Shown here piece by piece: positions 14,772 through 47,706 of a stretch of DNA of 55,394 bases. This DNA is from a virus (taxonomy: Duplodnaviria; Caudoviricetes). The DNA lies in IMG/VR virus record IMGVR_UViG_3300048813_000197, positions 1 to 55,394 of that record; one strand, written 5' to 3'. The position numbers were made by a program, and so were the translations under genes. Below the pieces are notes generated by a model. It was given only the letters and a program-made list of their open reading frames with translations. It made no database searches and was not told where the DNA came from. Every line of letters begins with the position of its first letter. Position 1 is the first letter of the stretch.

Positions 14772-15245
14772 TCAGGCGCGCCCGATCATCCTCGCGAAGT
14801 GGTAGTCGTTTAACGGATCGTCCAGCACAAGCCGCGAAGCCCGGTACCAGCCATTGAATTCTCTCGCCAGATAGCGTTCATTGATGAGAACCACCTCGTC
14901 GGTAAGCGCATCATTCCCGAACCAGGTAGCCCCATTGAACAGGAATCCACAATTAAACTTGCTGCGGGAGCACTCTACTCTTACCCGCTGATTCCAAATA
15001 ATGTTCGCCCATACACGCCCGACCACCCGATATGGGGACATGATGAATCCCGGCCTCATATTGCCGTACCAGAGCGTTCCGTAAGCTCTGTGCGCAGTGG
15101 TGATGATCGCGTCGTTGTCGTCGAACTCTGTGAGGTGTTGACCAAAGAATTCGTGGTTGATTGCGGGCTTTGCTGCGGCTGCGGCTGGCAGCGCCAATGC
15201 TGCTCCGACCGCGACGAGCGACTTTCCGAAGTCTCTGCGATTCAT
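14772..15245 (-). CDS. Tat-signal peptide fused to a major-capsid A-domain-like fragment
   Basis: MNRRDFGKSLVAVGAALALPAAAAA; AYGTLWYGNMRPGFI...NQRV...FN...NERYL aligns with capsid residues ~188-272. Confidence 0.7.
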   Translation of the reverse strand: MNRRDFGKSLVAVGAALALPAAAAAKPAINHEFFGQHLTEFDDNDAIITTAHRAYGTLWYGNMRPGFIMSPYRVVGRVWANIIWNQRVRVECSRSKFNCGFLFNGATWFGNDALTDEVVLINERYLAREFNGWYRASRLVLDDPLNDYHFARMIGRA

Positions 15246-15252
15246 ACCCACC

Positions 15253-15993
15253 TCACATCCAATTCAACGGCAAATACGGCTGCTCTTCCTTTGCCGGCTC
15301 AACTTCCGTGATAGTCAACTTCTCTTCCGGTTCTGGCTCGAATGGCTTAGCCTTCCGCCACTCATTCACCAGGAACTCACTGACCACTTCCTCAAAATCC
15401 GCCCTCAACAGCGCCGAGACCACCATCGGAACCAGTTTAGTCCCGCGCAACTGGAAGCAGGGGATCTGGCCGCAGTCGTTGAAGCCGAACCGGGACATGA
15501 ACTTTGCGGTCAAGACGTTATCGATGTACCTATTTCCGATCACGCATTGAAGGTCAAACTCCTTGAACAGATAAGCCAACCCGAGCATGGTCAGAATCGC
15601 TTGGTCTTCCGAACCCCAGGCACTCGAAAAAAAGGCGTAGCCGCAGATGAGCGACTTCTCCGTATTCGGCCCACCCATTGAAACCGTCGAGAACGCGAAG
15701 CCGAGCTCGACAAACTCCTCGTCCACCCATTTGCCGAGAATCAACAGGACCGGCCGCGAAGCGAGATAGGTGACGACTGAATTGAAGTCCGAGGCTGGGT
15801 TGCCGCCGAACGTCGCGGAGAGAATTCCGTCTCCAGACCGTCTTTTGGATTCTCTGCATCGACGATACAGATGCGCAAGGAATTCTTCGTCGAACAAGTC
15901 GCGGCGGTTGCGATCATAACGTATGACCTGCAAATCACCCCATCTATACTCGTCTTCTTTTAAGGCGCCGAGAACATCAATTTCTTCACTCAC
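15253..15993 (-). CDS. GNAT (RimJ/RimL-like) acetyltransferase
   Basis: LGLAYLFKEFDLQCVIG...NVLTAKFMSRFGF..CG; GNAT genes commonly neighbour podovirus internal protein genes; start reassigned to GTG 15993. Confidence 0.7.
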   Translation of the reverse strand: MSEEIDVLGALKEDEYRWGDLQVIRYDRNRRDLFDEEFLAHLYRRCRESKRRSGDGILSATFGGNPASDFNSVVTYLASRPVLLILGKWVDEEFVELGFAFSTVSMGGPNTEKSLICGYAFFSSAWGSEDQAILTMLGLAYLFKEFDLQCVIGNRYIDNVLTAKFMSRFGFNDCGQIPCFQLRGTKLVPMVVSALLRADFEEVVSEFLVNEWRKAKPFEPEPEEKLTITEVEPAKEEQPYLPLNWM

Positions 15994-16038
15994 GCTTGCA
16001 AGTATACACTTCCAAATCATGCTTGCAAGGAGTAAAAT
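15994..16038. promoter_or_regulatory. overlapping divergent promoters with two CTTGCAAG palindromes
   Basis: Minus: TTGCAA-16-TATACT-7-GTG; plus: TTCCAA-17-TAAAAT. Confidence 0.6.
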
Positions 16039-16091
16039 AGAGGGGTCGGGTGTTGAAGCACCTGGCCTTATTGCTACTGGAGGTAGCGACC

Positions 16092-16796
16092 ATGACCCCT
16101 CACGAAATCAGTTTAGCACCATGCCGATGCGGTGATCCTAACTGCATAACCCCGTTCGGATATTGCCATTGCGGATGCAACCGGAAGACCATCGTCTCCA
16201 TAAGGAACAGCACAATCCACCGCAAGAAAAAGGGATTCCCGCTTTTCTTTATCAACGGGCATAACGGCGTAAAACCGCGCCCGGCGATAACACAACCGAG
16301 TGATCTATATATAAGACTTATTGCTTTGACTCGGGGCCAAGTGGCGCGTGTCGATACTGCCGAATACGAGCGCATCAATCAATACCATTGGCGGGCGCAA
16401 TGGAGTGAGGATATGCATTCATATTACGCAGTGCGGAGTGTGATCGTTAACGGTAAAGAATCTGTGATTATGATGCAGGGCGATGTTCTCCCTGCTCCGG
16501 ATGGATACGTCACAGATCATATCAGTCGAGACACACTGGATAACCGCAAGATCAATCTTCGTTATGCCACTAATTCCCAGAACGGTATGAATGCAAAGAA
16601 GCGATCAAATAACACCAGCGGGCATACGGGGGTTTCTAAAAATAAAAAAGATGGATTATGGTGGGCCTCAATACGATGCGAGGGGGAATTGATCCATCTT
16701 GGCCGATTCATTCTCATTGAAGATGCCATAGATGCGAGGCATAAAAAAGAAATCGAACTATTTGGGGAGTTTAGTCGCATCCATAGAGACCAGTAG
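16092..16796 (+). CDS. HNH-AP2 homing endonuclease
   Basis: TDHISRDTLDNRKINLR, NNTSGHTGV, WWASI..HLGRF...DA. Confidence 0.9.
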   Translation: MTPHEISLAPCRCGDPNCITPFGYCHCGCNRKTIVSIRNSTIHRKKKGFPLFFINGHNGVKPRPAITQPSDLYIRLIALTRGQVARVDTAEYERINQYHWRAQWSEDMHSYYAVRSVIVNGKESVIMMQGDVLPAPDGYVTDHISRDTLDNRKINLRYATNSQNGMNAKKRSNNTSGHTGVSKNKKDGLWWASIRCEGELIHLGRFILIEDAIDARHKKEIELFGEFSRIHRDQ

Positions 16797-17099
16797 ATTA
16801 GAGATACGGAGGAGTCCATACACCACCATCGCCTTCGGACCTTCCTTGACCAGGGCCGTGCAGGGCTTGACGCGCATCCACGGCAAAGGGTGTTCAATCG
16901 TCATTCGGTCCATACGGTCCATCTGCCATAGGATAGTCGCGCGCCATGAGTATTCGCGATCCCAGCCATAATTCGGCGTCCGCCACCTGCCAGTCCCGAA
17001 TTGAACCTGTCCGCCAACTTCCACCTTGTAGCTGCCATGCGGATAGAGCGCGGTCGGCGCTTGGAAGTATTCGCGGACTTCGACGAGTTCGGGGTTCAT
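16758..17099 (-). CDS. portal-fragment-like small protein
   Basis: VEVREYF..YPHGSYKVEVGGQV vs portal YPRGRFLIVAGGKV; ATGA coupling to upstream ORF. Confidence 0.55.
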   Translation of the reverse strand: MNPELVEVREYFQAPTALYPHGSYKVEVGGQVQFGTGRWRTPNYGWDREYSWRATILWQMDRMDRMTIEHPLPWMRVKPCTALVKEGPKAMVVYGLLRISNLLVSMDATKLPK

Positions 17100-17497
17100 C
17101 GGCTATGCACATCCATGCACATCGGCGTTCCAACTCCGCCGAGGAAATTCAGTAGCGTCAATGCCGGATCCTTTCTCTCCGCCGCACTGGGCCAGACTTC
17201 ATCAGTTACCCAGCATCGCGGACGGCCCACTACGCCGGTTTGCCTGCGGAGATAGCCTAAAGTCAGAATGACCGGCTGCTCGTCTTCGGGGTACAGATGT
17301 CGATACTTGTCCGCCGTAAGCGCCATCGTGTTGCTGTTACACACGACGATGTAGCAGAATCCCGAAGCGTACTCGTGCACGAACTCCAACAGCGCCGTCG
17401 TCTTGCCAGTCTGGCGGCCACGAGTGACAACCTTACCCTTGCCTAGTTCGGCTTTGATGGAGTCGATGGAGGTGCGCATGTCGGTTGTTGTGCTCAT
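17096..17497 (-). CDS. minimal terminase-like P-loop ATPase
   Basis: RGRQTGKTT (Walker A), CWVTDE (Walker B), VGTP (motif III) in 133 aa; ATGA overlaps at both ends. Confidence 0.7.
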   Translation of the reverse strand: MSTTTDMRTSIDSIKAELGKGKVVTRGRQTGKTTALLEFVHEYASGFCYIVVCNSNTMALTADKYRHLYPEDEQPVILTLGYLRRQTGVVGRPRCWVTDEVWPSAAERKDPALTLLNFLGGVGTPMCMDVHSR

Positions 17498-17697
17498 CGC
17501 GGCCACTTCCTCGCATCCCACACTGATTCATCGAACTTGGCAAAAGATCGAAAGTCGCAGCCTTGACAACTGACAACTTTTCTTATCTCTGCGGCTATCT
17601 CGAAGTCGCCATCTAGCCTCCATGAGACACCGCATAGATAGCAAACCGGGTGCTTGCGCAGATCTATCGGCTCGTGATTGTTGTGCGGTCTGCTCAT
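17494..17697 (-). CDS. small Zn-finger protein
   Basis: CYLC, CQGC; ATGA coupling. Confidence 0.65.
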   Translation of the reverse strand: MSRPHNNHEPIDLRKHPVCYLCGVSWRLDGDFEIAAEIRKVVSCQGCDFRSFAKFDESVWDARKWPR

Positions 17698-18119
17698 CTT
17701 GCAATCCCCGCCGCCGTCCAAACCGCCCCGCCAATCAGCAGAACGATCGACGAGAAGCCCAAGGCCAGCACCAGAGAGTATTTGCCGACGGTGTAGTTGG
17801 AGTTGCCCGGCGGAGTCGCCATGGAGACCATGAAGGCCTCGTAGAAGAACGCCAGAAAGCCGCAGAACAGCAGCGCATTGATCGCCGCCAACAGGAACAT
17901 CGCCGCAGGCCAGAGAGTCGGCGAGTAGTCATAGGCCCAGGTCGCGCCGAAGATGCCGAGCAGAACCTGAAAGTAGCCGAAAACTGAATAGCAGATCAGG
18001 TGAGGGAAGAAAGTCCCCTTGCCGCACGGGTCCATTCTGTAGGGACCGGCTGGCAGACCGAGGCGGAAGATGATCCAGAGGATTAGAGGCAGCGCGGTTG
18101 CTGCTTCGATGATGAGCAT
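17694..18119 (-). CDS. four-TM membrane protein
   Basis: Four hydrophobic segments; RBS AAGGA. Confidence 0.7.
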   Translation of the reverse strand: MLIIEAATALPLILWIIFRLGLPAGPYRMDPCGKGTFFPHLICYSVFGYFQVLLGIFGATWAYDYSPTLWPAAMFLLAAINALLFCGFLAFFYEAFMVSMATPPGNSNYTVGKYSLVLALGFSSIVLLIGGAVWTAAGIAR

Positions 18120-18325
18120 TTCAATTTCCTTTCCTTCATGGCAACCAGATCGCCGCCGGTCGCCAGCATGAGTTGTTCGTCGATGGTGCGATGCGCCTTG
18201 ACCGCCTCCTGATGAAGACTTCTCCAGAATTCCAAAGGTGCATCTGCGTATTCAGGAAATTCCAACTGGAGACGGGCAAGGTGCGAGATGCCAACGGTGC
18301 GTGGTTTGAGGATCAGCGATTCCAC
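18083..18325 (-). CDS. small protein with TerL Walker A-like N-terminus
   Basis: LILKPRTVGIS vs TerL IVLKPRQTGIS; TAGTG coupling. Confidence 0.55.
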   Translation of the reverse strand: MESLILKPRTVGISHLARLQLEFPEYADAPLEFWRSLHQEAVKAHRTIDEQLMLATGGDLVAMKERKLKCSSSKQQPRCL

Positions 18326-18630
18326 TACCGCCGTCCGACAACCTGGGGGCCACCCTGCGGAACGGCAAGACCGGCCGCGTTCGGTCCTTGCTCGAATTGG
18401 TCAGCGCTCGCCTTCAACTGGATGGACGCATTCAGCATGGCACCGAGCGGCGGATCGGCAATCGAATAACTCTCGTCGAGAATGAGTGCGCCGCCAACCC
18501 TGCCGAGGAACTTGTGAATATCCCTGAGCATATTGACGATCTGTGATTTGGTGGGGGCTTCGCTGAAAGAGATTGATGCGAGTTCAAGGTTCTTGACTTC
18601 CAATTTGTTCCCTCGTCTTAGCGTAGTCAC
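18325..18630 (-). CDS. hypothetical protein
   Basis: First gene after candidate promoter; coupled to next ORF. Confidence 0.6.
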   Translation of the reverse strand: MTTLRRGNKLEVKNLELASISFSEAPTKSQIVNMLRDIHKFLGRVGGALILDESYSIADPPLGAMLNASIQLKASADQFEQGPNAAGLAVPQGGPQVVGRR

Positions 18631-18671
18631 GCTTGCAACAAAGAATACGCTTGCAACCGCCGTTTCCGCAA
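18631..18671 (-). promoter_or_regulatory. candidate promoter with two GTTGCAAG boxes flanking the -10
   Basis: TTGCGG-18-TATTCT with GTTGCAAGCG on both sides of the -10. Confidence 0.5.
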
Positions 18672-18680
18672 CAGGAAATT

Positions 18681-18920
18681 TCAGGCACTCGCAACCCGCG
18701 CCGTCGCCGCCCGGCTGAGATCGTGGAAATCCTTGTCATTGTCTGACAATCGCACCACTCTACATTGGTCGATAAAGTGCGTCTCGAAATACTGCTCCGC
18801 GCACGAAAGGCAGAAGAGATGACCGTCTACTTTGAATACGGCTTTACTGTTCCTCGACCGGCAGTTTGACAGTTTCCGTTTACGCTCACGCGCGCGTTCA
18901 AGCCCTTCGCATTGCGCCAC
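18681..18920 (-). CDS. small Cys-containing protein
   Basis: GTG after GGAGG; FCLSC motif. Confidence 0.55.
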   Translation of the reverse strand: MAQCEGLERARERKRKLSNCRSRNSKAVFKVDGHLFCLSCAEQYFETHFIDQCRVVRLSDNDKDFHDLSRAATARVASA

Positions 18921-18931
18921 TGCTAGACCTC

Positions 18932-21900
18932 CTAGACTGGTACTTCTTTCAACTGATAACTGTGGCCCGCGCCGATTGGCTTCCAAAGAACGCGCACGGG
19001 AGTCCACAACTGAAACTGGTTTGGCGGGACTGGCGCGTTCTCGACCGCGATAAATCGCCATGTCCTGAAAGTGAATGCCGTGGTGCCGGGATTGACGTTG
19101 CCATGCCTGACGCGGACCACTATCCGGGTCGCGGATGCTGGGAGAGTAAAAGTAAAATAAGGGGTCGCATTGTTGTCTGCGTAGAGGTTAACCGTGATCG
19201 GAACGGTTGCGCTGTAATCATAGTACGATTCCTTCGCAAACTTACTTTCCTTGGTTCCGAACTCCACCCAATAGGAATCCGCACTGGCGCTATACTCGGC
19301 TAATTCCGCCGCGTAGATATTCTCCTGGTAGAGAGTGGGCGCAACCGTCACCGCCATCGTATGCAGAATCGAAGCACGATATGCTTGCTGGCCGGAACCA
19401 GCATTGACCAGCAATTCGACTTTTTGCCTATTCGTGCCCGTATTGATCGTCGCCAGGGGAACAGAAATTGCTCCATCTTCGAAAAGGAGGGTCGTATTCA
19501 AGACCTGATTCTCGGTGTTAACATCAGTCTCGATCTGGTTCCATTGCTTTGGGAAATGCGGCTTTCCCAAGTCGCGATACGGATGCTGGATGGTGATATT
19601 GATTGGCGTCTGGACGAGAGCGCCGGAAACCCAGCCGCCGTCATCATAGTCGCCTACCTGATCCTGCACCACAGCGTAATTGCCGCCACCCATCGACTTG
19701 CCGACGAGCAGCGTGTTGATGTCTTTCTCCCAGAGCATTGCGGTTGCGGGAACGTCGTCATTCCGGTAACGCTGATATTGAGTATCGTAGTCAAGCCGAT
19801 ACCGCTGGCCAGAGTTGAGCGTGCTCACGTAAGAGCAGTAGACCACGTTGTTGTAGTAAGCCAGGATCGACTGCGAGAAGTCCGCTTGGTTCGCTTGCGG
19901 CGGCAGGCATTCCGGATTGCCACGGAAGATCCACTCGACGGGAAGTGTCTTGTAAACGCCATCCGCGCCAGAGAATTCGCGCAGGCCGTCCGCAGCCTGA
20001 TACCAGATCGCGCCTTCGACCTCAATCCATCCCTGCTGCGCGACGATGCCATGGACAGAGCCTGTCGGCTGAGGATAAGGATTTGCGCCGCCGACGATAA
20101 TCCACCACGACTTCAATGTGCCGACAATCAATGTTCCACGCCAGTTGATGACGGCATTGATCGGATCATCAGGAGTTGAGACCGGGATGTAATTCTGAGG
20201 TCCAAAGTTCTCCGGCAGGCCCTTCTTCGAATAGTAGAGATAGTGCGGATTGTTTGGATCGCCGGCCAGCCACGCCTGGTTATAGGCGAACGCGCAGAGA
20301 TTGCAGGCTTGCCGCGGCACAGCATAGACGTTGACCGGCTCGCCGACGTTGTGCTGCAGGCGAATAACGGCCGAGAATGAATCGACTCCGCCCGCAATGA
20401 CTGAAACGATCTCGAGATTTGACGGATTACCGATCGCTACTAATTGATTGGGAAAGAAGTCTGCCGCCGGAGCAGAGACCGTAACAATCTGCGGACTGAA
20501 TAGCGAGTAAATCGACGATCCTGGTGGAGATGTTGCCACAGAGAGCGTCGTCTGAATCGGGTTGATGAGCGATGAAGTAACGGGTGGGTCGTTGTCGAGA
20601 ACCAGAATCTGCGCCTGCTCTATGAACGCATCCGCAATCACATCCTTGAACACCACCTGGCCAGTTCCTGTGATGTTCGGAATCTGTCCAACCTGCACCC
20701 AGTTCGCGCTGAGAGTTCCACCTCTCCGATAGAAGCGAACATGCGTCACCTGGGGGTCCGGCGAGTAGTAACCGACGCATTGCGCAGCTTGCCGCAGGAA
20801 GATGGGCGCCGAAGTCGAGGCTAGATATCCATAGTCCTCATTGAACTCTTGAGCAGGTGTTGGATTGGATTCAGTGCCGGTGTTGGCGTTGTAGTAGGTC
20901 TGCCGCCAGTCGTAGCCCACGCCGGCAAAAGACGACGGTCCGTACCCCCATTGCAGGTAGAGGCCGTTGACGGAGAACGATACGCCGCCGACATTTGCAT
21001 TTGCGGTGACGGTCAGAGTCCAGCCGGTGACGTTCGCCCAATCGAGGCCAGCCTGGCCAGCTTGTCCAACAGGAAGGAAGTTGCCGCGCGGGATATAGCA
21101 TGCCTGCCACGCGCTTGCCCCTGTCGAGATGTTCGATGGCTGCAATTGCGCCGAGGTCGTGCCCGGTGGTTGCCCGGTAATCAAGTTGAGGGTGTCAGCT
21201 AGAATCTGACTCTGCGTTGCCTGATAGGCGAGCGTGCTGCCACTCAAAGCCCCTTGGTAATAGGCTGGGGAGATGAATGCAGAATAGTAATTGCTTGGAT
21301 TGCTGGTATTGCTGTTGCCCACCCAGAACTGAAGTTGAATCTGCGATATGTTCGCCGGATTCGATGTCAGCAGGGTGATAACGATCAAGTCGCCGTCCGT
21401 CACCTGATTGTTTTGGCTAAGGTCAAGGGCGGGCGATGCGCTCACTGTTCCGCTGGTACTTGCCGCAACATTCCCGGCCCAGGCTGAGATTGGGAATGCG
21501 GTTGTCGTGGGCGGCACCCACTCATAGAATCCCCATGCGCTCATCTGCGATGGATATGGGGCGCTGTACTCGTCTGTCAAAACACAGGCATACGGCGCTG
21601 CCGCGCCGCCGGTCACATAGCCGCCAGCAGTCGCGCCAATCAGTGTGGCCGAGGTGAAGGCCACCGTCAGAGTGGTCGTGGTCGGCGCCGCAATAACTTC
21701 ATAGAATCCGTCCACAAGATCGGAAGATGACGCATATATCGCAATGAGCGCGCCGGCTGACAATCCGTGCGCCGTCGAAGTTCTGATCAGGAGTTGCGTA
21801 TAGAGTCCGCCAACGAGCGTTTGCGAGGCAACCGATGCAATCGGAATATTGACCGAAGTGTTGGTGTTTAACAGCGACAGCATCCCATTCGTCACGGGTC

Positions 21901-30856: not shown

Positions 30857-31216
30857 TCAGTCCCCCTTCGTTCTGGTAAGCGGATTGCGCGCGCTGCTTC
30901 CGTATATCGACGGGCAGCATGGCGATTCCGTGCAGGTCGGTTCCGCCGGCTCGTGAACGTTCTTGTAACTCGAGCGCGCTCCAATCCCGCCCATGGCGCC
31001 GCGAACGTTGTCCATGATCGAATTGGGTTTGAGGACGTACTTCCCTTTACCGCCCCAATCATTCGCCACTTCCGGGTCAAACTCATCGTGAACACCCAGC
31101 CGCGAGCGGTCGATGTGAAAGTTGTCGGTTGCAGATTTGGTGTTCTGCGGCGCTTCGATCTTGCCGTAGTTGCGATTGCGGAAAGTGTCGTGGACACGGT
31201 TACTGGGAATGGTCAT
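30857..31216 (-). CDS. hypothetical protein
   Basis: Start reassigned to ATG 31216; fills the operon gap. Confidence 0.6.
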   Translation of the reverse strand: MTIPSNRVHDTFRNRNYGKIEAPQNTKSATDNFHIDRSRLGVHDEFDPEVANDWGGKGKYVLKPNSIMDNVRGAMGGIGARSSYKNVHEPAEPTCTESPCCPSIYGSSARNPLTRTKGD

Positions 31217-31412
31217 AGAAAGCCCCCGAAATAAAGAGGTTTGGATGCGGGAAGTTGAATGTTGCCTGGGCATAGGCGTCCTGCAACATCTTGAGCGTGA
31301 TCGGACAGTTGCCTTCAGGATAGAATTCCGGCTCGGCTACCAAGGTAGATGGAGCAATTGCCGCCGTCGCCGCAACCGCCAACACTGTCTTTCCAAACTC
31401 TCGCCTGTTCAT
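31200..31412 (-). CDS. Tat-signal peptide fused to a major-capsid peptide
   Basis: MNRREFGKTVLAVAATAAIA; PITLKMLQDAYAQATFNFPHPNL vs capsid PITVTALQKAYGQATFGNRQPNL; RBS GGAGG, ATGA coupling. Confidence 0.75.
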   Translation of the reverse strand: MNRREFGKTVLAVAATAAIAPSTLVAEPEFYPEGNCPITLKMLQDAYAQATFNFPHPNLFISGAFYDHSQ

Positions 31413-34865: not shown

Positions 34866-35840
34866 CTAACCAGTCACCCCGGACAAGATAAAGCCCAACC
34901 GCGGCGCGCTCACCACGATGTCGCCACCGAAGCAAAGCTGGCCGGCGCTGTCCACCGAGTTCGGCAGTTCCTTGAACCCGGTAAAGCCGAAGCCGAAGAG
35001 CTCGTGATCGGAGATGTGGACATTCAGGAAGTCGGTGTTCATGCCGAAGACATAGCCGGTCGGCACATACTGATCGACAACAAGGCGCTGGTTGTTGAAC
35101 CGGATGGCGGTGAAGCCAATGTTCTGCGCCTGGTCGATCATGATGTTGTCGTTGACACGCTGCGCCGGAACCAACTTGTTGTAGAGCTGGTTGTAGATCG
35201 ACTGCGTGGTGGCGATGAGGTTTGGCTGCCGGTTTCCGAAGGTGGCCTGGCCATAAGCCTTCTGCAGAGCGGTGACCGTGATAGGTCCGGCCACATTCTG
35301 ATAGTAGCCGTTGATGCCGGTCGAGGCGCCGGTACCGATGGCCGCGCGGGGAAGCCCGCCGTAGGTCGGATAGTTGGTGCCGTCGTCGTACCCGGCGAGC
35401 AACCCGTCGAGGGCGATCTGTGAGGAGACGGTGCCCTGGCCGTCATTGTAGATGTCGATGGCGAGCGCCTGGGCCAGAGCCTGCGAGCCGTTGATCATCT
35501 TCTCTTCGACGAAGCTCATCACCGCGTTCGTGCCCATGTTGATGGGAAGCTGAGTCCCCTGGATGGTCACGTTGGCGTAATAGAACTTCACCGCAAAGGT
35601 CATCGCCGTGTCCGTCTGGACATAGCTGATGTCGAAGGTGGACCCAGGCGCGAACGGACCAGCCTTCAGAGGCGCGTACTGGATGGGCTGCTGGATGTAG
35701 AGGCCGCCCGGGAAGGGCTTGACTGTCTCACCCTTGAAGATCAGAACGAAGACGGGAGATACCTTGTAATATTCGTCCACGATCTCGGGGACGATCTCCT
35801 GTTTCGTTACGGCCGAAATATCATTGATTGTCAGCGCCAT
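34866..35840 (-). CDS. major capsid protein (HK97 fold)
   Basis: 324 aa after scaffold; IYNDG...LDGL, TYGGLPR, PNLIATT, GFTAIRFN..LVVD, PRLG.L.G motifs. Confidence 0.9.
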   Translation of the reverse strand: MALTINDISAVTKQEIVPEIVDEYYKVSPVFVLIFKGETVKPFPGGLYIQQPIQYAPLKAGPFAPGSTFDISYVQTDTAMTFAVKFYYANVTIQGTQLPINMGTNAVMSFVEEKMINGSQALAQALAIDIYNDGQGTVSSQIALDGLLAGYDDGTNYPTYGGLPRAAIGTGASTGINGYYQNVAGPITVTALQKAYGQATFGNRQPNLIATTQSIYNQLYNKLVPAQRVNDNIMIDQAQNIGFTAIRFNNQRLVVDQYVPTGYVFGMNTDFLNVHISDHELFGFGFTGFKELPNSVDSAGQLCFGGDIVVSAPRLGFILSGVTG

Positions 35841-36998: not shown

Positions 36999-37001
36999 GG
37001 G

Positions 37002-37175: not shown

Positions 37176-37195
37176 GGGAGTTTACCTCTTGGGTT

Positions 37196-37676: not shown

Positions 37677-38299
37677 ATCACGGTAAGCCGCGACCAGTGC
37701 TGATTCAGCCAGAAGATACCTCTATCCGCCTCATCGCGCTCACTCGGGGTTTTGTTGTCAAAGTTGATGTCTCCGATTATGAAGACTTGATGTGTAATTT
37801 ATGGGGGGTGATGAAGTGCAGGGATAAGTGGTACGCCTACAGAACCCATATAATCAACGGCCAGAAAACTTCGCTCTTACTGCATCGCTACCTGTTGGGC
37901 TTAACGCCTGGTGATGGCATCGTTGTCGATCACGACAACGGAGATGGGCTTGATTGCCGGAGAGATAATCTCCGTAAGGGAGGTACCGCAGAAAACGGGC
38001 AGAATCGCGGCATTCAGGCCAATAACACGTCTGGCTTCAAGGGTGTCACGCCGTACCGTTACAACCCGGAGTTCTGGGTCGCCCAGATAAAAGCATTTGG
38101 AAAGCATAAGCACCTCGGATTATTTAGAGAGAAAGAGAAAGCCGCCCGCGCCTACGATGAGGCTGCTATTCGATTGCATGGAAGATATGCGCGGCTCAAC
38201 TTCCCTGAAGAGCATCCTACTTCTTCCCATGCCCGGCCGCGTGCTGCCCAGCCCCCGCCAACTGCGCCAATTGAATCTTCTCCAGCGCTTCGGCTTTAA
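37673..38299 (+). CDS. HNH-AP2 homing endonuclease
   Basis: VDHDNGDGLDCRRDNLR, NNTSGFKGV, AARAYDEAA..HGRYARLNFP; ATGA coupling. Confidence 0.9.
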   Translation: MNHGKPRPVLIQPEDTSIRLIALTRGFVVKVDVSDYEDLMCNLWGVMKCRDKWYAYRTHIINGQKTSLLLHRYLLGLTPGDGIVVDHDNGDGLDCRRDNLRKGGTAENGQNRGIQANNTSGFKGVTPYRYNPEFWVAQIKAFGKHKHLGLFREKEKAARAYDEAAIRLHGRYARLNFPEEHPTSSHARPRAAQPPPTAPIESSPALRL

Positions 38300-40019
38300 G
38301 TTCGGCTTCGATCCTCTCTTGTTCTGCGATTGGGATTCCGAGTTTCCGGTAAAGAGCTTTTCTGCTTAGGACTCCCATTTTAAGCATCGAAAACGCGATC
38401 TGCACTTCCTCATTCTTCTCGATGGCGAGCAAGCTGCCCTTGCGGATAGAGAACACCGCCTGGCGCACGAACTGCTCCGGCTCCATACCCTTCGCCATCG
38501 AAAACCACTGGCCGAAGGGCTGCTCAAAGTCGGCGTCCGTCAGACCCTTGGTGCCGAATTTAGCGATCCGGCTCTTCGAGGTAGAGAATTGCATGATGTT
38601 CGAGGCGACCTGGGTGCCGGTATCGGTGAGGAATGAGTAGAGGCCCCGGCCCATGAAGCGCACGGGGATCGATCTGGAATTCAGGATCATCTCCAAAGAG
38701 TCGCCGCCCGGCACCTGCTTTTTCTGGAGAGATTGATTGATGGCCGACGCGCCAGAGGTCATTTCCTGCTCTTTCTCGACACCCTCCTTCATCTGGAGAA
38801 CGTAGGCCGGCAACTCGGCGGGCTTGGGGAAAGACGGTTCCCGCGGCGTGTTGTTGTTGTACATCATCTTCGAACCGGGCGCGCCGGGATCCATCGAATC
38901 CCAGACGGACTGCGCGAATGCCGCCTTCGGCGCCACGATCCTCGGCTCGATCACGGCGCGAATCATGTCCATCAGTCCGCCGTTGATCCGGTTTACGATG
39001 TCGGACATTTGGGCAATGGGTTCCAAAGGGCTAACTCCCTGCGAAGACCACGGAACCCGAATCAGCCGGAGTTTGGCGAAAGGAAACATGCCATGCCAAT
39101 AGGGATTGCATTGGTCCTGGAGAACCTTGCCGCCGGCGACAATCAGGAATCGGCCGCGCGGATACCACGGCTCTCCCGGTTCGACAAGATACGACCAGTT
39201 GTACCGCTCGTCGCCTACGCGCTTCGTCTCGGAACCCTCGTTGATCGAAGCGTCCTTGAACCAGAACTGTTTGAGCATCGCCTTCGGATAGCGGCTGCGC
39301 TTGCCGTCCAACTGCCGCTTGCCGAGCATCTTCTTCAACTGCGGATTCAGCCGGACCCATGACGCCTGCGACATCTTGCCTGGCCGCGACACTTCACCAG
39401 TTGGCTCGTTGGTCTCGAGGTCGGCTTGCACATCGTTCGCCAGCTCGCCAAACGTCCGCTTGAGAGTTTCGATCGTCACCGGCCAGCGGCCAATGACGCA
39501 TTCGTCATCCTGCAGCTTCTTCCCCGCGCCGATACTCATCACATTCAGCGGTCCAAGGGGCATGAACTCGTTGTCCCCCATCCCGTTGTTCATCGCTCCG
39601 TTCCACTGGATTTTGGCGAATCCCGTGTGGAGCAGCGCCCACATGACGGACTGGGTGAGCTCCGCTTCGAAGTCCGTCACCTGCGCCCACATCGTAATCA
39701 TCTCGTTGAGCAGGGTCTGGAGAGCGGTGAATTGCTCGTCTTCGTTGTGGAATTTGACCTGGAAGTCCGGCTCGATGTCGGTAAGAATGCCCGCCATTTC
39801 CATGAACTGCCGGAAGAGGCGATTGACGGTTGGCCGGCTGCGGCCGTAGCGGGATTTGGCATTCCACTGCTGGCCGGAGATGTAGTCGATGAGCCGGGAT
39901 GTCAGCCGAATTTCGCGGGAGTCGGCCAGTTCCCGCTCCGCTTCGTCGTAAACGGAGTCCGACCAGGCGAGAACTTCCCGCTCCAGCGCTGCTTCCGGTC
40001 TCTCTGTCGAATCGGCCAT
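38217..40019 (-). CDS. portal protein (P22-like)
   Basis: 600 aa between terminase and scaffold; YISGQQW, PTVNRL, GFAKIQW, NPY..FPF motifs. Confidence 0.9.
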   Translation of the reverse strand: MADSTERPEAALEREVLAWSDSVYDEAERELADSREIRLTSRLIDYISGQQWNAKSRYGRSRPTVNRLFRQFMEMAGILTDIEPDFQVKFHNEDEQFTALQTLLNEMITMWAQVTDFEAELTQSVMWALLHTGFAKIQWNGAMNNGMGDNEFMPLGPLNVMSIGAGKKLQDDECVIGRWPVTIETLKRTFGELANDVQADLETNEPTGEVSRPGKMSQASWVRLNPQLKKMLGKRQLDGKRSRYPKAMLKQFWFKDASINEGSETKRVGDERYNWSYLVEPGEPWYPRGRFLIVAGGKVLQDQCNPYWHGMFPFAKLRLIRVPWSSQGVSPLEPIAQMSDIVNRINGGLMDMIRAVIEPRIVAPKAAFAQSVWDSMDPGAPGSKMMYNNNTPREPSFPKPAELPAYVLQMKEGVEKEQEMTSGASAINQSLQKKQVPGGDSLEMILNSRSIPVRFMGRGLYSFLTDTGTQVASNIMQFSTSKSRIAKFGTKGLTDADFEQPFGQWFSMAKGMEPEQFVRQAVFSIRKGSLLAIEKNEEVQIAFSMLKMGVLSRKALYRKLGIPIAEQERIEAELKAEALEKIQLAQLAGAGQHAAGHGKK

Positions 40020-40802: not shown

Positions 40803-42941
40803 TTACCAATCCTCGCCGTAGTCATCGCCCATCTTCGGACCCGCAGCAGCCATCGCACTCTTATAAGCCCATATTACATCCGGAGTGATCTCCGTTGAGT
40901 GTAAACCGTGCCGCAGGTGAAGGTCTTTTTCCACACCCATAGCGTCGAAGATCGGGCTAAAAAGCGTGTTCGCGTTGCAAACAAGAATCGGCCGGACACT
41001 CCAGCCCGCTTTACCGAGAATCACCTTGTCCGCTTCCGCCTGGGTGTTGTATTGACCGCGCTGGCGCATGATGTTGTCGTAGACGCCGTAGATGTGCAGC
41101 TCGCCCGTGGAGCGGACTTTTTCCGTTGAGGCCGAAGTCTTCAGGTGCTTCGTCGTCTCGCGCAGGCAATAGAGGCCGATCATGCCCGACATCACGGAAT
41201 CGTCATTGTTGCCTTGCCCCTCAGACCTGCCATCCGTTTCCATCGCCGCGAAGTCGATCATCTCGTCGAGCATGTCAGCGTCTCGAATGACAACCGTATG
41301 GTCGAGCAGCGCCTCATTCATGCAGCCAATGATCTCGTCGCGGGTCTTCGAGTTGGTCAGCCAGTGGAGGTAATTTGTCGCCTGGTTGGTGATCTTGTCT
41401 TTGAATTGCGGCCGGTAGAGGTTCGGATAGTCGAGGTCACGCAGCTCGTTGCCGGTCGTGATACCGTCTTTCATATACTCGACGGCGATCTCCGCGTTGT
41501 TATAGAAAATTCCGATGGCGGCGCCAACGTGTGCGAACTTCTTTGGCGGGATCCATCCCCACCATGTTGCCGCAATCGAATCCGGCTCCATGCCCTGCCC
41601 GGCCCGCCACACGGTCGCCATCGAGTAGTCGCCACCGTTGCCGAGCGCCACGTCCATCGAGACATAGTAGGTTTCGTTTGCTTCCGGCATCTCCCAGATG
41701 AACAGCCGTTTTCCGCCCCTGCCGGACTTGCGCTTCGGTAAGTCGTGTTTGTCCTTCACCGCGGCGATGTCGTCGGTGTTGATGCGCGGCGGCTCCATCG
41801 AGACGAGTGTGATTTCGCCGGCAAACAGTGGATCGCATACCTTGTTCATCTCCTGCCATTCGAGCGAGTCGCGGTCGAAGGCGCAGAGACCCGATGATTG
41901 GAATGCTTCGTTCGGGGTCAGCGGATACGACTCGAGGAAGCCGGCCTTCTTCCCTTTGCGCTTGGCAGCCCGCATGCGGTTGCGGCGGAAGTCCCAGAAC
42001 GTATCTGGAATCTCGAAGTCCTCTTCTTTCAGTATCCGCGCATTGAAGGTGATTTCGTCGTCGGCGAGCTCAAACGTCTCCGGCATGTTCTCCGGCAACG
42101 TGTAATACTTTTTGACTTTGTAAACCGGAATCCAGACGGCGCGCATGTCGCTATCGCCATCGACCGCCGCGCACCATTCGTCGTAGAACAGACCCTGGCG
42201 ACCGTAGCCGGTAGATTCGAAAACTTGGTAGGTGTCGCGCGCGTTCATCGACGGTTTGATGTCACCCTCATACACCTCGTCATTCGGCCAGCGGCTAACC
42301 TCTGAAGCGTGGAGAGCTCGAATCGATCGACCAATGGCAACGCCGGAAGTTTTCGTCGCGGCCGACACCTGGAGTCCTGATCCAAGGCCCGGGTCCACCA
42401 TGCGCTCTTTTTCGTCGCTGCGCTGGAACTCGATGCCGCCGTTCTTTGTTTTGTACATCCATTCCGGCTTCATCCACCACGGCAGATTCGCGTAGGCGTT
42501 CAAGCTCATCTGGTAGATGTACTCGGAGGTGTCGTCATTCTGCGCGACGATCATGGTGAAGCAGTGGGGTGTGAACATGGTGTGGTGGAGCATGGAGGCC
42601 GCCGTCCACACACTGATGCCGGTCTGGCGGGGTTTGAGGACGATGATCTTGCAATAGCCGTGCTCGGTCCACTCTTCCTGAATCGCCTCGTACAAAATTT
42701 CCTGATGGTCCCAGAACGGAAAGAGGGTCTTCAGTTGGCCATGCTCTGTCTTGATGATGTGGTAGTTCTCGAGGTAGTAGCGCAGGTCTAAGGCTTTTCC
42801 AACTTCATTTTCAATGAACTGCAATCCGCCGGAAGGCAACTCTGCCCAGGCTCGCGCGATGTCCTGTCCGCAGCGCAGGTAGTGGTCCTGCAGAACTTCG
42901 ATTTCATCGTTGAGACCGGGATTTCTACGAGGTACTCTCAT
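40803..42941 (-). CDS. terL: terminase large subunit
   Basis: LKPRQTGIS Walker A, LHASEV Walker B, FESTG, nuclease YYVSMDVALG / AVE / NDDSVMS; RBS GGAGG before ATG 42941. Confidence 0.95.
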   Translation of the reverse strand: MRVPRRNPGLNDEIEVLQDHYLRCGQDIARAWAELPSGGLQFIENEVGKALDLRYYLENYHIIKTEHGQLKTLFPFWDHQEILYEAIQEEWTEHGYCKIIVLKPRQTGISVWTAASMLHHTMFTPHCFTMIVAQNDDTSEYIYQMSLNAYANLPWWMKPEWMYKTKNGGIEFQRSDEKERMVDPGLGSGLQVSAATKTSGVAIGRSIRALHASEVSRWPNDEVYEGDIKPSMNARDTYQVFESTGYGRQGLFYDEWCAAVDGDSDMRAVWIPVYKVKKYYTLPENMPETFELADDEITFNARILKEEDFEIPDTFWDFRRNRMRAAKRKGKKAGFLESYPLTPNEAFQSSGLCAFDRDSLEWQEMNKVCDPLFAGEITLVSMEPPRINTDDIAAVKDKHDLPKRKSGRGGKRLFIWEMPEANETYYVSMDVALGNGGDYSMATVWRAGQGMEPDSIAATWWGWIPPKKFAHVGAAIGIFYNNAEIAVEYMKDGITTGNELRDLDYPNLYRPQFKDKITNQATNYLHWLTNSKTRDEIIGCMNEALLDHTVVIRDADMLDEMIDFAAMETDGRSEGQGNNDDSVMSGMIGLYCLRETTKHLKTSASTEKVRSTGELHIYGVYDNIMRQRGQYNTQAEADKVILGKAGWSVRPILVCNANTLFSPIFDAMGVEKDLHLRHGLHSTEITPDVIWAYKSAMAAAGPKMGDDYGEDW

Positions 42942-43284
42942 TTTTGACCTCCTCGATTTTCTCTTGCTCAACCGGATACGCGCTCTCCAACAACTTAGAC
43001 ATCGCCTCTTCGATAGCGCACGCCATCGCTAAAGCGCCGTTGTTGTAATCGGTATCTGGCCTATAGGATCGGTCAAGGTTTGGTTTGAAGGGTATTGGTT
43101 TTATTGGCTCCGCTATCCACTCGCCGGTATACCGCTCAGCAACAACCATTCCTTGCTTGCCGCTGTAAGGGTTAAAACAGATTTTCACTCGGGAAAATCT
43201 CTTGTTGAGATCGAAGTACCCCTCAACCGCACGTTTTGGTTTTATCGCTTGACTCGTCTTTCGCAGAATCGATTCAAAACTCAT
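42925..43284 (-). CDS. hypothetical protein starting with a TerS-like peptide
   Basis: ATGA coupling to terS; MSFESILRK. Confidence 0.65.
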   Translation of the reverse strand: MSFESILRKTSQAIKPKRAVEGYFDLNKRFSRVKICFNPYSGKQGMVVAERYTGEWIAEPIKPIPFKPNLDRSYRPDTDYNNGALAMACAIEEAMSKLLESAYPVEQEKIEEVKNESTS

Positions 43285-43952
43285 TCGCCTTCCTCCTCGT
43301 CTTCGTTGTCGTCATCATCGCCCGATCCACCGAAGTCCTTAAACTCATCCGCAATCGACTCTTCATGCGTCAACTCGGCTTCGATCAACTGCGCTTCCTG
43401 TGAATTAATGAGACCCTTCTCCTCGCGCTTCTTCCGGAGAATAGCCTCGAAGCTCATTCCGCCGCCGTTGCCGCCGCCGGGCGAACCGAAATTGTTTTGT
43501 TGGTTGTTTTGAATGAGCGGACCTTTGGGATGAATGGTTTCGATTGCCGAGCGGATCTCGGTCGCGGTCTTCAACTGCATCGCCATATCCGGCTTCGAGG
43601 TAATCTTGCCGGTTTCTCTATCGATGTGAACGACCTTTGTTGCCTTCATGCCGCGCTGGTAAACAAGCGCTACATCATCCAACTGATCTGTGATTATTTC
43701 AATAAACTTGGTGTCGAGAAATGCGGATGAGTTGCGAAATTTCCACTCTTTAACGTACTCGAGTGAGGCTTGTACGATAGGCACGCTGGTATTTTCTCGT
43801 TTTGCGATCTGCTCCTCAGTAAGACCTAAACTGTCGTGCATGTACCAACGGCGCAGGTCGGTGTCCCCTGGACTCGGCATAGCCTTCCGTGGAGCTTTTA
43901 AGCGGTTAATGATGGATAGGGATGTTTCCTTTTTTTTCCTAGCGACCGGCAT
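43281..43952 (-). CDS. terS: probable terminase small subunit
   Basis: N-terminal HTH (GLTEEQIAKRENTS), helical core, QNNQQNN linker, acidic tail; upstream of terL. Confidence 0.65.
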   Translation of the reverse strand: MPVARKKKETSLSIINRLKAPRKAMPSPGDTDLRRWYMHDSLGLTEEQIAKRENTSVPIVQASLEYVKEWKFRNSSAFLDTKFIEIITDQLDDVALVYQRGMKATKVVHIDRETGKITSKPDMAMQLKTATEIRSAIETIHPKGPLIQNNQQNNFGSPGGGNGGGMSFEAILRKKREEKGLINSQEAQLIEAELTHEESIADEFKDFGGSGDDDDNEDEEEGE

Positions 43953-43954
43953 AG

Positions 43955-45319: not shown

Positions 45320-45690
45320 AATCCTCTCCAGCTTTCCAATTTTACGCCGCCGAATATCTTGCCGACGAGAATGTTGCCCTGATGTCCCTCGAAGAAGAGG
45401 GAGCTTACATCCGCGCCATCGCCTATTGTTGGCGAGAAGGTAGTATCCCCGCTAACGAAACCAAACTTCAACGACTCCTGAAAAATGCTTCAACCACCGT
45501 TATAAGGGTGGTTACAAATTGCTTCAACCAACATCCAACCGACTCAGAAAGACTGGTCCATCCGCGACTTGAGCAAGAGCGCGAGAAGCAGCGTCTCTGG
45601 AAGGAAAAATCATCGCAAGGTGGGAAGAAATCGGCTGATGTGAAGAAAACAAACAAGATACATGATATTGGAGAATTTAAGGGTGGTTGA
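45316..45690 (+). CDS. DUF1376/YdaU-family replication initiator, short or truncated
   Basis: PAFQFYAAEYL...MSLEEEGAYI...W..GSIP...LVHPRLEQER...S.GGKKS. Confidence 0.8.
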   Translation: MKSSPAFQFYAAEYLADENVALMSLEEEGAYIRAIAYCWREGSIPANETKLQRLLKNASTTVIRVVTNCFNQHPTDSERLVHPRLEQEREKQRLWKEKSSQGGKKSADVKKTNKIHDIGEFKGG

Positions 45691-45710
45691 ACCACCGTTG
45701 TAAGGGTGGT
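45492..45710. repeat. iteron-like inverted/direct repeats, candidate origin
   Basis: AACCACCGTT at 45492 and 45690; AAGGGTGGT at 45504, 45679, 45702. Confidence 0.6.
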
Positions 45711-45832
45711 AGTACACTTCTTCTTCAATCTTCATATTGCGTTTGTCTGGCTTTCGTGCCTCTTATCAGCAGTATTCTTCTAACCCACTATTGGTGGCAA
45801 AACATCGATTTTTAGGCCTGAAAGGAAAGTGA

Positions 45833-47104
45833 ATGACGCCTTACTTTGAAGACGGTCCAGTGATGGTTTACCAGGGTCACGTGCTTGACGTGCTGCGGCA
45901 GATGCCGGATGAGAGTGTGAATTGCGTGGTGACCTCGCCGCCGTATTGGGGGTTGCGGGATTACGGAACCGCAGAATGGCAAGGTGGTTCTGAAGATTGC
46001 GATCACTTAAAGCCAGCGGCGCATGGCTACAACCCAATTAAAACATCCACTCTCGGTCCCAACCGCGACGGAATTTCTACCGACAACTCAGCGCACGCAA
46101 ACGAGGCTAAACGGCAGCAGTACACTTGTGCTTGCGGTAAATGCGGAGCGACCCGTATCGATCACCAGATCGGGCTGGAGAAAACTCCGCAGGAATATAT
46201 CGCGAAGATGGTCGAGGTGTTTCGCGAGGTGCGACGAGTGTTGACTGATGAAGGCGCGCTCTGGGTGAATATCGGCGATTCTTACGCTAGCGGTAAGGGA
46301 ACCTGCTACAACCCCGGCGGCGGCGAAACCTCACTTGGTAAAGACCGCAAAGATGAAGGGGTGCACCCGCTTGACCGTGGCAATAAGTCTACGCTCGCGG
46401 CTGTTGGTCTTAAACCTAAAGACTTGGTCGGGATACCGTGGATGCTGGCCTTTGCCCTGCGCGCCGATGGATGGTATTTGAGACAAGAGATAATTTGGGA
46501 AAAGCCAAATCCGATGCCCGAGAGCGTAACTGATCGCTGCACTAAAGCTCACGAGCAGATTTTCCTACTTACAAAAAACTCCCGATATTACTTCGACCAA
46601 GAGGCGATTCTCGAAGATGTTTCGCCAGGCACTCATGCGCGGCTATCACAAAATGTCGAAGCACAGATCGGTTCCGAGCGCGCCAATGGCGGCCAGAAGA
46701 CCAATGGAAATATGAAGGCGGTTGGACGAAAACTCGCCGAGGCCGGCAGTGGCACCAAAAACAACACAAGTTTCGATGCGGCAATGGCGGTAATGCCAGA
46801 CAAGCGCAATAAGCGCAGCGTCTGGACTGTGGCGACTGAAGCATTTTCTGAGGCCCACTTCGCCACGTTTCCGCAAGAGTTGATCAAACCCTGTATCCTC
46901 GCCGGATGCCCAGCGGGCGGAGTCGTCCTCGATCCTTTCGCCGGCTCGTTGACCACGATGCAGGTCGCGTCAAAGCTCAACTGCAAATCGATCGGCATCG
47001 AACTAAATTCTGACTACATCGACATCGGAATTCGCTGCCGTCTCAAACAATCCGTACTAGACTTTACCCAGGAGGAAACATGCCCACCAACCCACAATTC
47101 CTGA
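45833..47104 (+). CDS. N4/N6 DNA methyltransferase (beta class)
   Basis: TSPPYW, IIWEKPNPMPESVTDR, HFATFP, VLDPFAGS. Confidence 0.92.
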   Translation: MTPYFEDGPVMVYQGHVLDVLRQMPDESVNCVVTSPPYWGLRDYGTAEWQGGSEDCDHLKPAAHGYNPIKTSTLGPNRDGISTDNSAHANEAKRQQYTCACGKCGATRIDHQIGLEKTPQEYIAKMVEVFREVRRVLTDEGALWVNIGDSYASGKGTCYNPGGGETSLGKDRKDEGVHPLDRGNKSTLAAVGLKPKDLVGIPWMLAFALRADGWYLRQEIIWEKPNPMPESVTDRCTKAHEQIFLLTKNSRYYFDQEAILEDVSPGTHARLSQNVEAQIGSERANGGQKTNGNMKAVGRKLAEAGSGTKNNTSFDAAMAVMPDKRNKRSVWTVATEAFSEAHFATFPQELIKPCILAGCPAGGVVLDPFAGSLTTMQVASKLNCKSIGIELNSDYIDIGIRCRLKQSVLDFTQEETCPPTHNS

Positions 47105-47706
47105 TCGCCGCCCGCACGATGATCGACCAACTGCTTGCCAGAGGTCAGCGCCCGCTGGTGTTCCTGATGAATCCGACAACCGCAGGAGTCATCGCCGCGG
47201 ATATGGCTGAGTTCCACTTCAACCAGAAGTCCGCCTTCGCTCGCTTCTGGCATCTGGTGCGGCATGGGAAGACTGTGCCGAAACTGGAGACACTGCACGG
47301 CGTCCCGGTGCAGGAGATGGCCTCTTTGCCGGATGGAGCGATGCATCTGCAGTGCGTGGCGAATATCTCACCGCAGGCGATTGGAGAGGCGATGAAGGCC
47401 CAGGCTGCGCAGAACCAGCAGCGAGGTCAGGAGTTCTGGGAGAAGCAGCGTGTCGAGCCGCCGGCTGCCGCTGAGGGAGATGTAGCGCCGACTCTGAATG
47501 ACCTGGCGAGTGGGAGTGGGGATCGACCGAGTTGTAGCGATGTGTTGATGAAAGCGATGGAGCGCGCGGACGAGTTGTCTGGCGTGGTGGTGATTCGTGT
47601 CTATCCAAACAACCGGCTGGATATGTCTCTCAATGTTGACCACTATGCCGCAACCGGGATTTTACAGAAGGCGATGATTTATCTCGCTCACGGTGATCAA
47701 GTATGA
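47080..47706 (+). CDS. two-domain protein, N-terminal HK97 capsid A-domain-like
   Basis: RPLVFLMNPTT...TLHGVPVQEMASLPDG; C-terminus resembles 51795..52031. Confidence 0.55.
   Translation: MPTNPQFLIAARTMIDQLLARGQRPLVFLMNPTTAGVIAADMAEFHFNQKSAFARFWHLVRHGKTVPKLETLHGVPVQEMASLPDGAMHLQCVANISPQAIGEAMKAQAAQNQQRGQEFWEKQRVEPPAAAEGDVAPTLNDLASGSGDRPSCSDVLMKAMERADELSGVVVIRVYPNNRLDMSLNVDHYAATGILQKAMIYLAHGDQV

Follow-up and report, generated by a model that had tools for sequence, protein, structure and literature searches.

Several immune proteins recognise the structural proteins of phages. According to passages of two preprints, CapRel contacts the P- and A-domains of a major capsid protein (MCP; bioRxiv 10.1101/2022.05.30.493996), and Avs7 and Dsr1 sense MCPs (bioRxiv 10.64898/2026.01.04.697583). 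Given that immune sensors recognise both capsid and terminase proteins, any phage gene that duplicates a portion of such a protein is an obvious candidate for a counter-measure. The DNA analysed here, referred to as the window, is the entire 55,394-base IMG/VR virus record IMGVR_UViG_3300048813_000197, from an uncultured peat or permafrost phage with most of its genes on the minus strand. An initial annotation of the window had read seven small open reading frames (ORFs) as pieces of capsid, portal and terminase proteins that together form a coordinated set of mimics. We conclude instead, with good confidence, that the window holds one real feature, a family of small genes derived from the phage's own MCP and represented here by ORF 14772 and ORF 31200 (the mini-capsid family), alongside coincidental likenesses; the five other ORFs are ordinary small phage genes, and there is no coordinated seven-part mimic system.

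Ccm of SaPIbov5, as described in the abstract of PMC8569155, is encoded by a satellite, is homologous to the capsid protein of the helper phage, and acts in the cytoplasm, where it redirects capsid assembly and so capsid shape. On that description, the mini-capsid family resembles it in being an extra capsid-protein homologue that is kept by a mobile element and is not the main shell protein; unlike Ccm, it is fragment-sized, is the phage's own gene and bears a leader of the twin-arginine (Tat) type in half of its members. In encapsulins (abstract of PMC8346489), the HK97 fold forms cellular compartments; they similarly represent capsid ancestry recruited for a new role, but they are portrayed as retaining the whole fold and forming shells, whereas the mini-capsid proteins keep part of the fold. 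Ocr of T7 is a cytoplasmic phage decoy that mimics DNA, and the passages of PMC12409349 that describe it mention no capsid-protein decoy. Decoys of the Ocr type have the same kind of function as was originally proposed for the seven ORFs; the two mini-capsid proteins of the window carry leaders instead. With Tat substrates (Pfam PF10518) the mini-capsid leader shares RR-x-F-x-K, a hydrophobic stretch and an A-x-A site, but the window protein scores under the curated cut-off and a capsid-derived passenger is unusual. Finally, the family is homologous to the MCP of its own clade over about 83 columns, yet its proteins are at most half as long as the MCP, often carry a leader, and are encoded in an accessory island and not in the head module.

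The known examples of additional or reused capsid proteins, namely vertex paralogues such as the T4 vertex protein, Ccm and encapsulins, are whole proteins that retain the complete fold. In the literature covered by our full-text search, no phage protein was described that is derived from a capsid protein and is either truncated or exported, and the mini-capsid family seems to be previously undescribed.

Capsid ancestry of ORF 14772 and its family

All seven small ORFs are present in the window. Searches of Pfam, PHROGs and NCBIfam assigned none of them to a family of capsids, portals or terminases, and for this reason they were compared with the phage's own proteins. An MCP search of IMG/VR gave 135 confirmed relatives, of which 80 were kept, with MCP identities from 99% down to 41%, and five related records were examined whole (G001-G004 and G006). 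Among cultured phages, the closest MCPs are those of Tunturiibacter phages, at 27% identity. Family profiles from relatives (59 sequences for the MCP, 52 for the portal, 33 for the large terminase TerL and 13 for a gene resembling the small terminase TerS) were used to score every window ORF of 40 aa or more, 487 in all. Smith-Waterman (SW) scores were set against 2000 shuffles per ORF, and profiles were compared with hhalign, for which all 22 cross-controls stayed at or below 3.1%.

Apart from the window's MCP itself, the MCP profile matched only ORF 31200 (E 3.8e-5) and ORF 14772 (E 4.1e-5), the next ORF following at E 4.9. BLASTP against the window's MCP aligned residues 50-90 of ORF 14772 with MCP 189-229 (pairwise E 5e-5) and residues 17-59 of ORF 31200 with MCP 166-208 (42% identity over 43 aa, pairwise E 7e-7). 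The likeness of both ORFs was also clear in the shuffle and hhalign comparisons (Table 1). Of the three ORFs that the initial annotation had taken for capsid pieces, these two are borne out; ORF 47080 is not, its match to the MCP profile lying at E 12 and its score being reached by a large share of shuffles.

ORF 14772 is a conserved gene. A collection of 5.8 billion proteins contains seven full-length homologues (147-163 aa, 59-71% identity), some of them on contigs of 42-71 kb, and an alignment of ORF 14772 with its close homologues has 57 invariant columns. Among 1.84 billion cluster representatives, the family counts 27 at E <= 1e-3, mostly of 93-197 aa. When 25 members were aligned and compared with 17 MCP sequences by hhalign, the two profiles matched at 98.1% (E 8e-14) over 83 columns, residues 45-128 of ORF 14772 corresponding to MCP 186-274. 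The reverse search, in which the family hidden Markov model (HMM) was run against 11,897 ORFs of the window, related loci and four whole relatives, led back to the same proteins. All matches at E <= 0.0016 were ORF 14772, a 151-aa ORF of G004 (present under two names and as a clipped copy at a locus edge), MCP genes, and ORF 31200 with its G001 homologue, with the next match only at E 4.7. The MCP genes of related loci were matched at E 7e-13 to 1.6e-3. One member, P0013, extends past the aligned region into a copy of the invariant motif that comes next in the MCP, and this links the family with this particular MCP lineage. A tree built from 28 members and six MCP segments groups the MCPs in a single clade (support 100/99), with the small proteins on the other side. 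Judged from these alignments, we regard as real the derivation of the family from the C-terminal part of the clade's own MCP, residues ~186-274.

The family lacks the whole MCP fold: ORF 14772 and ORF 31200 encode 157 and 70 aa against 324 aa in the MCP, and only MCP 186-274 aligns. Because the N-terminal half of the MCP is missing, the mini-capsid protein cannot be a shell subunit. By its position in the protein, the retained segment should be the A-domain region of an HK97-type fold. As a separate observation, three long proteins (P0032, P0033 and P0034, 695-1340 aa) contain 7-10 separate short matches each to the mini-capsid profile (query 42-100), and these may be repeat proteins that share a YGN-type motif.

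ORF 31200 is a different case. Its leader is closest to the leaders of the ORF 14772 subfamily (hhalign 96.3%; SW 52-65), while its mature part scores 64-75 against true MCPs and at most 44 against any family member. Its mature part, only ~44 residues long, cannot accommodate the complete domain. It is present only in the window and in G001, the closest relative, where it is 89% identical over 65 residues with differing C-terminal ends; its dN/dS of 0.75 (4 synonymous and 10 non-synonymous changes) indicates no clear purifying selection. A recent duplication of the window's own MCP gene was rejected as its source, since at the DNA level the two share only words of up to 10 bases. PHROGs gave nothing for ten neighbours of ORF 31200. 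From these features, ORF 31200 may be a young chimera or a decaying copy.

One could therefore ask whether the MCP-like ORFs are simply functionless debris, left over from partial duplications that may have spread together with homing endonucleases. ORF 31200, with its narrow distribution, short length and dN/dS, would fit this, and genes of the HNH type are multi-copy in the clade. Close to one such gene, G002 carries a 152-aa ORF (58832-59290, minus strand) with a motif of ~19 residues like MCP 284-302; a clipped copy gives E 6.4e-4, and the full ORF is not listed at 1e-3. However, the seven full-length homologues and the deep family of 27 representatives argue that ORF 14772 is not debris, the family forms one clade apart from the MCPs, and ORF 31200 shows no DNA-level likeness to the MCP gene. 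We thus consider debris a very improbable explanation. The initial annotation's argument against simple debris stands for ORF 14772.

Leader and island context of the mini-capsid genes

New N-termini had been noted on the supposed fragments, and this is correct for ORF 14772 and ORF 31200. In 14 of the 25 aligned family members, both window ORFs included, RR-x-F/L lies among the first 15 residues, and after it come a hydrophobic stretch, a proline and a site of the A-x-A type. The Pfam model TAT_signal (PF10518) matched five of the 25 at E <= 1 (best 5.4e-5), and the leader had no match in NCBIfam. The distribution of the leader on the tree needs at least two gains or losses. The motif is retained in members just 27-40% identical to the ORF 14772 protein, which implies that the leader is used. 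On these grounds the proteins of ORF 14772 and ORF 31200 are predicted, most likely, to be exported by Tat. Such a leader points to the periplasm, and this argues against a cytoplasmic decoy or dominant-negative role for the two proteins of the window.

ORF 14772 lies in an accessory island whose composition differs among relatives. Its start codon follows the stop codon of ORF 15253 after a 7-nt spacer (GGTGGGT) that includes a Shine-Dalgarno-like GGTGGG. Between the homologues of genes 14095 and 18932, ORF 15253, ORF 17694 and ORF 18325 are kept, ORF 18083 usually is, and the remainder varies. When ORF 14772 was searched in G001-G004, only their MCP genes matched. G004 has a leaderless mini-capsid member on the other side of ORF 15253, G006 has a leaderless one directly upstream of its ORF 15253 homologue, and in G026 the mini-capsid domain ends a 329-aa protein with a 200-residue N-terminal region. 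The family profile was also run on 25 further records: in 22 it matched at the MCP gene only, in G026 at the MCP gene and at one extra member, and in two, which had been picked through a P-loop gene, nowhere. By this presence pattern, the mini-capsid gene is an accessory component of the island with a patchy distribution.

Several neighbours of ORF 14772 are conserved in relatives. ORF 15253 has homologues of 56-77% identity in G001, G003 and G004, and further ones in G006 and G026. In G003 (36009-37196), G004 (34065-35339) and L120 (0-1007) the C-terminus of this protein is 80-170 residues longer than in the window and G001; the extensions of G003 and G004 were considered as hidden mini-capsid members and rejected, as they have no match to the family profile. 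ORF 18325 differs from its G001 homologue by 8 synonymous and 0 non-synonymous changes and has no family match, and ORF 17694 reads as a putative membrane protein. Copies of the HNH gene are scattered through the relatives, three of them in G001. Elsewhere in the window, the minus-strand ORF 2529-12323 encodes a giant protein of 3264 aa with ddrB-ParB, AAA_34 and ResIII helicase domains, which we take to resemble a polyvalent, injected protein of the anti-restriction type.

The island of G006 also contains a partial copy of a second hallmark protein. This record (97 kb, with direct terminal repeats, rated 100% complete) has a full TerL at 18579-20372 and, at 50861-51505 on the plus strand (L117:10861-11505; L112 and L117 belong to the same record), a 214-aa stand-alone TerL nuclease domain. 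The latter matches positions 400-599 of the TerL profile (E 1e-31 to 1e-33), keeps acidic residues at the conserved positions, has at least 16 homologues of 195-253 aa (52-72% identity) and lies ~600 bases upstream of the mini-capsid gene. No stand-alone TerL nuclease gene was found among the 487 ORFs of the window with the TerL profile.

The locus also occurs in other sequence data. In a DNA run of another study, a 1372-base contig spans all of ORF 14772 together with its two junctions and is identical throughout. The runs that bear the island are labelled as peat or permafrost metagenomes, except one freshwater run with a share of 0.10; for runs with small shares, the habitat is read from the run labels only. 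Isolated phages are all distant, and the island had no megablast match among 50,697 phage records. An IMG/VR related-locus search with the close ORF 14772 family alignment likewise returned no relative.

The remaining reading frames of the proposed set

Table 1. Features of the window, with the outcome of the shuffle and hhalign comparisons
Feature	Position	Strand	Description and basis	Shuffles reaching score (of 2000)	hhalign
ORF 14772, mini-capsid gene (157 aa, ATG at 15245)	14772..15245	-	Tat-like leader and MCP-derived domain	0	family vs MCP, 94% (98.1% with larger 25-member alignment)
Tat-like leader of ORF 14772 (~27 residues)	15165..15245	-	RR-x-F-G-K, hydrophobic stretch, A-x-A site		
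MCP-homologous core of ORF 14772 (residues 45-128)	14862..15113	-	hhalign, 83 columns vs MCP 186-274		
ORF 31200 (70 aa)	31200..31412	-	Tat-like leader fused to ~32-43 residue segment like MCP 166-210	0	vs MCP, 90%, E 1.4e-6, 32 columns
MCP, the phage's real major capsid protein (324 aa)	34866..35840	-	phrog_9953 major head protein, E 4.6e-24		
MCP gene part matched by mini-capsid family (residues 186-274)	35019..35285	-	hhalign and reverse family-HMM search		
ORF 15253, conserved island gene (255 aa)	15253..16020	-	directly upstream of ORF 14772; dN/dS 0.22		
HNH homing-endonuclease-like gene	16050..16796	+	island insertion on the opposite strand; overlaps ORF 16758 3' end; Pfam HNH_3, E 4.2e-7		
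ORF 16758 (113 aa)	16758..17099	-	conserved C-terminal motif, not portal-like; portal tests negative	274	vs portal, 2.9%, 15 columns
ORF 17096 (141 aa)	17096..17521	-	small conserved P-loop NTPase; probable start ATG near 17497	152	family vs TerL, 6.1%, 12 columns, Walker A only
ORF 17694, conserved hydrophobic island gene (141 aa)	17694..18119	-	homologues in G001, G003, G004, G026; dN/dS 0.42		
ORF 18083, conserved small gene (80 aa)	18083..18325	-	11-residue TerL Walker A likeness, 7/11 identical, E 0.36	62	vs TerL, 7.2%, 11 columns, Walker A only
ORF 18325, island gene (101 aa)	18325..18630	-	strong constraint; 99%, 69%, 61% identity in G001, G003, G004		
Portal protein	38217..40019	-	phrog_156, E 9e-9		
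Large terminase TerL	40803..42941 (PHROGs ORF to 42971)	-	phrog_2, E 5.6e-17		
ORF 42925 (119 aa)	42925..43284	-	inserted exactly between TerS-like gene and TerL	48	vs TerS-like, 35%; family profiles 55%, E 1.2e-4, 10 columns
TerS-like gene (223 aa)	43281..43952	-	named by position only, directly upstream of TerL		
DNA methyltransferase	45833..47104	+	overlaps ORF 47080 start; phrog_67, E 1.4e-73		
ORF 47080 (208 aa)	47080..47706	+	conserved two-domain protein, not capsid-like; downstream of DNA methyltransferase	855	vs MCP, 0.3%

The hallmark likenesses of four of the five other ORFs are at chance level, and that of ORF 42925 is borderline. BLASTP aligned these five over stretches of just 9-36 residues, with E values from 0.36 to 15, and their shuffle and hhalign results differ sharply from those of the two capsid-like ORFs (Table 1).

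ORF 16758 had been assigned to the portal protein, an assignment that we could not reproduce: the best non-self match of the portal profile is at E 2.1, and ORF 16758 is outside its 14 best matches. In G001 and G003, ORFs of 71-76 aa carry the same motifs as ORF 16758 at both termini, and the 3' end of ORF 16758 is altered in the window, beside the opposite-strand HNH gene. A further portal-related observation concerns L040, where a 130-aa ORF in the middle of a 6.3 kb contig (2116-2508, plus strand) matches positions 12-106 only of the portal profile and may be a split or interrupted portal gene.

ORF 17096 and ORF 18083, read initially as a terminase ATPase and as a TerL Walker A peptide, reach the TerL profile only at E 6.5 and E 4.6, respectively, and in both cases at the Walker A box only. 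Neither assignment is upheld by these results. ORF 17096 belongs to a six-member family whose proteins, of ~140-190 aa, share the Walker A and Walker B motifs as well as an invariant GGVGTPMCMD. Against solved structures, this family finds only Walker A matches, the best being F1 ATPase alpha at E 0.09; Pfam AAA_14 stays below its cut-off and no terminase family is matched. Members also occur at L108-L111 and at G001 40710-41279. A relationship of ORF 17096 to the stand-alone TerL nuclease protein of G006 was considered and rejected (hhalign 0.3%). ORF 18083 is 96% identical in G001 (dN/dS 0.19), while its homologues in G004 and G026 align only from residues 17 and 39 on, which leaves the Walker-A-like peptide outside the conserved part.

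ORF 47080 is also an ordinary conserved gene by these measures, with 39-63% identity in G001-G004 and a dN/dS of 0.38. It has no capsid match in the Atlas or among solved-structure sequences, where its family reached E >= 0.1 only.

For ORF 42925, the TerS-like profile gave E 1.9. The ORF corresponds to an insertion of ~340 bases from the TerS-like stop to the TerL start, with ATGAG at both borders; by comparison with G001, TerL begins with the ATG at 42941, and the TTG at 42971 is not its start. It has no homologue in G001-G004 or in the IMG/VR search; three homologues of 68-94% identity were found, and their alignment has 70 invariant columns. The TerS-like gene is without a match in Pfam, PHROGs and NCBIfam, and its 13-member family keeps an SFE-x-ILRKK motif after a Gly-rich linker. 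It is the motif of this C-terminal module that ORF 42925 resembles in its own invariant N-terminal motif of 9-10 residues (8 of 9 identical, a short match only). We regard this likeness as borderline and unproven; the TerS-like gene itself owes its name to position.

The signs of joint expression were partly as described. Translational coupling is real: ATGA/GTGA start/stop overlaps lie at 17096-17099, 18325, 31409-31412 and 43281-43284, so that overlaps of 1-4 bases pair ORF 16758 with ORF 17096, ORF 18083 with ORF 18325, ORF 31200 with its upstream gene and ORF 42925 with the TerS-like gene. As to the TTGCAA-box promoters proposed for the island, five boxes do fall within 15996-18656, but the window as a whole is not enriched (21 observed against 17.35 expected) and the island has a single full pair of -35/-10-like sites, at 16028-16001.

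Taken together, the seven ORFs are extremely unlikely to act as coordinated decoys for immune proteins that sense capsid, portal and terminase, or as dominant-negative poisons of rival assembly. Such a role would agree with the true MCP derivation of two ORFs, with the existence of MCP-sensing defences (CapRel, Avs7 and Dsr1, in the passages cited above), with the TerL nuclease-domain copy beside the mini-capsid gene of G006, and with the motif of ORF 42925. Against it stand the chance-level likeness of four of the seven, the export leaders on both capsid-like ORFs, the lack of conservation of the Walker-A-like peptide of ORF 18083, and the absence of any PADLOC family at E <= 0.001 for the small ORFs. 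Moreover, the parts do not co-occur in relatives: across G001-G004, ORF 14772 and ORF 42925 are found in none and ORF 31200 in one. What survives of the hallmark pieces is thus two of seven, and the coordinated set falls away. More generally, short peptide likenesses picked by eye in raw sequence are mostly chance, as were four of the seven here with one more borderline.

Proposed role of the mini-capsid proteins

ORF 14772 shares its strand with the tail and ejection genes and follows its upstream gene closely, and its protein would be produced alongside the late gene products. In the mechanism that we propose, its domain of ~130 residues would fold in the cytoplasm and cross the inner membrane via the host Tat system, with removal of the leader. 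Once in the periplasm, the mature domain would work as a binding module in some conflict at the level of the envelope. Our best guess, weakly held, is that it serves the exclusion of a second phage at the envelope.

Several points weigh against this interpretation. The literature that we searched gave no precedent for a periplasmic role of a capsid-derived domain. ORF 14772 scores 14.2 and 13.5 bits with TAT_signal, under the cut-off of 22.7 bits. Eleven of the 25 aligned members are leaderless, as are those of G004 and G006; half of the family thus lacks the leader, from which it follows that the domain has, or once had, a cytoplasmic function as well. Naming the retained part an A-domain is a matter of inference, because profile searches of solved-structure sequences returned 0 matches for the mini-capsid family and 0 for the MCP. 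In the ESM Atlas, the feature neighbours of the ORF 14772 protein are capsid-fragment clusters, with a score of 0.76 that is a lead only. The Atlas model of this protein, of low confidence (pLDDT 0.51), aligns over residues 26-157 and gives TM scores by query of 0.58-0.66 against viral proteins of 322-336 aa, and the same range against clusters that bear SU10_MCP. Contigs from an RNA library cover 28 of 30 bins of 13500-19500 with zero differences, which is no proof of transcription; the uncovered parts of the island carry no meaning. ORF 31200 lacks clear purifying selection, as noted above. Lastly, some room is left for a wider theme by the TerS-like motif of ORF 42925 and by the additional TerL nuclease domain that G006 carries.

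The leaderless members bear most directly on the question of compartment. The capsid-like proteins could remain in the cytoplasm and bind the phage's own MCP, that of a rival, or an MCP sensor, as a decoy, an assembly modulator or a poison, with the RR leader unused or carrying a bound partner out. In addition to the leaderless members already mentioned, that of G026 would fit such a role. The retained MCP region would, by its position, lie at capsomer centres, and CapRel touches an A-domain loop in the passages of its preprint. Since many related phages share the same habitats, rivalry between them is plausible. However, the leader, with its RR-x-F, hydrophobic stretch and A-x-A, is kept down to 27-40% identity, and we consider a cytoplasmic role unlikely for the capsid-like ORFs of the window. 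Leaderless members in relatives could fill cytoplasmic decoy or poison roles.

Export of the two window proteins remains our preferred interpretation, and a broader one can be sketched around it. The island between the tail genes and the giant ejection-type protein might repeatedly recruit domain-sized offcuts of the phage's own hallmark proteins, namely the capsid A-domain region in the window, G004, G006 and G026 and the TerL nuclease in G006. Their N-termini would be swapped (a Tat leader, none, or a 200-aa domain), and they would serve in conflicts over hallmark recognition, either by blunting capsid and terminase sensors or by sabotaging co-infecting relatives; the Tat forms would extend the trick to the envelope. 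We offer this as speculation and rate it as rather improbable.

With or without such a theme, a conserved, phage-borne and fragment-sized derivative of a capsid protein that is often Tat-tagged would be a new reuse of a hallmark fold.

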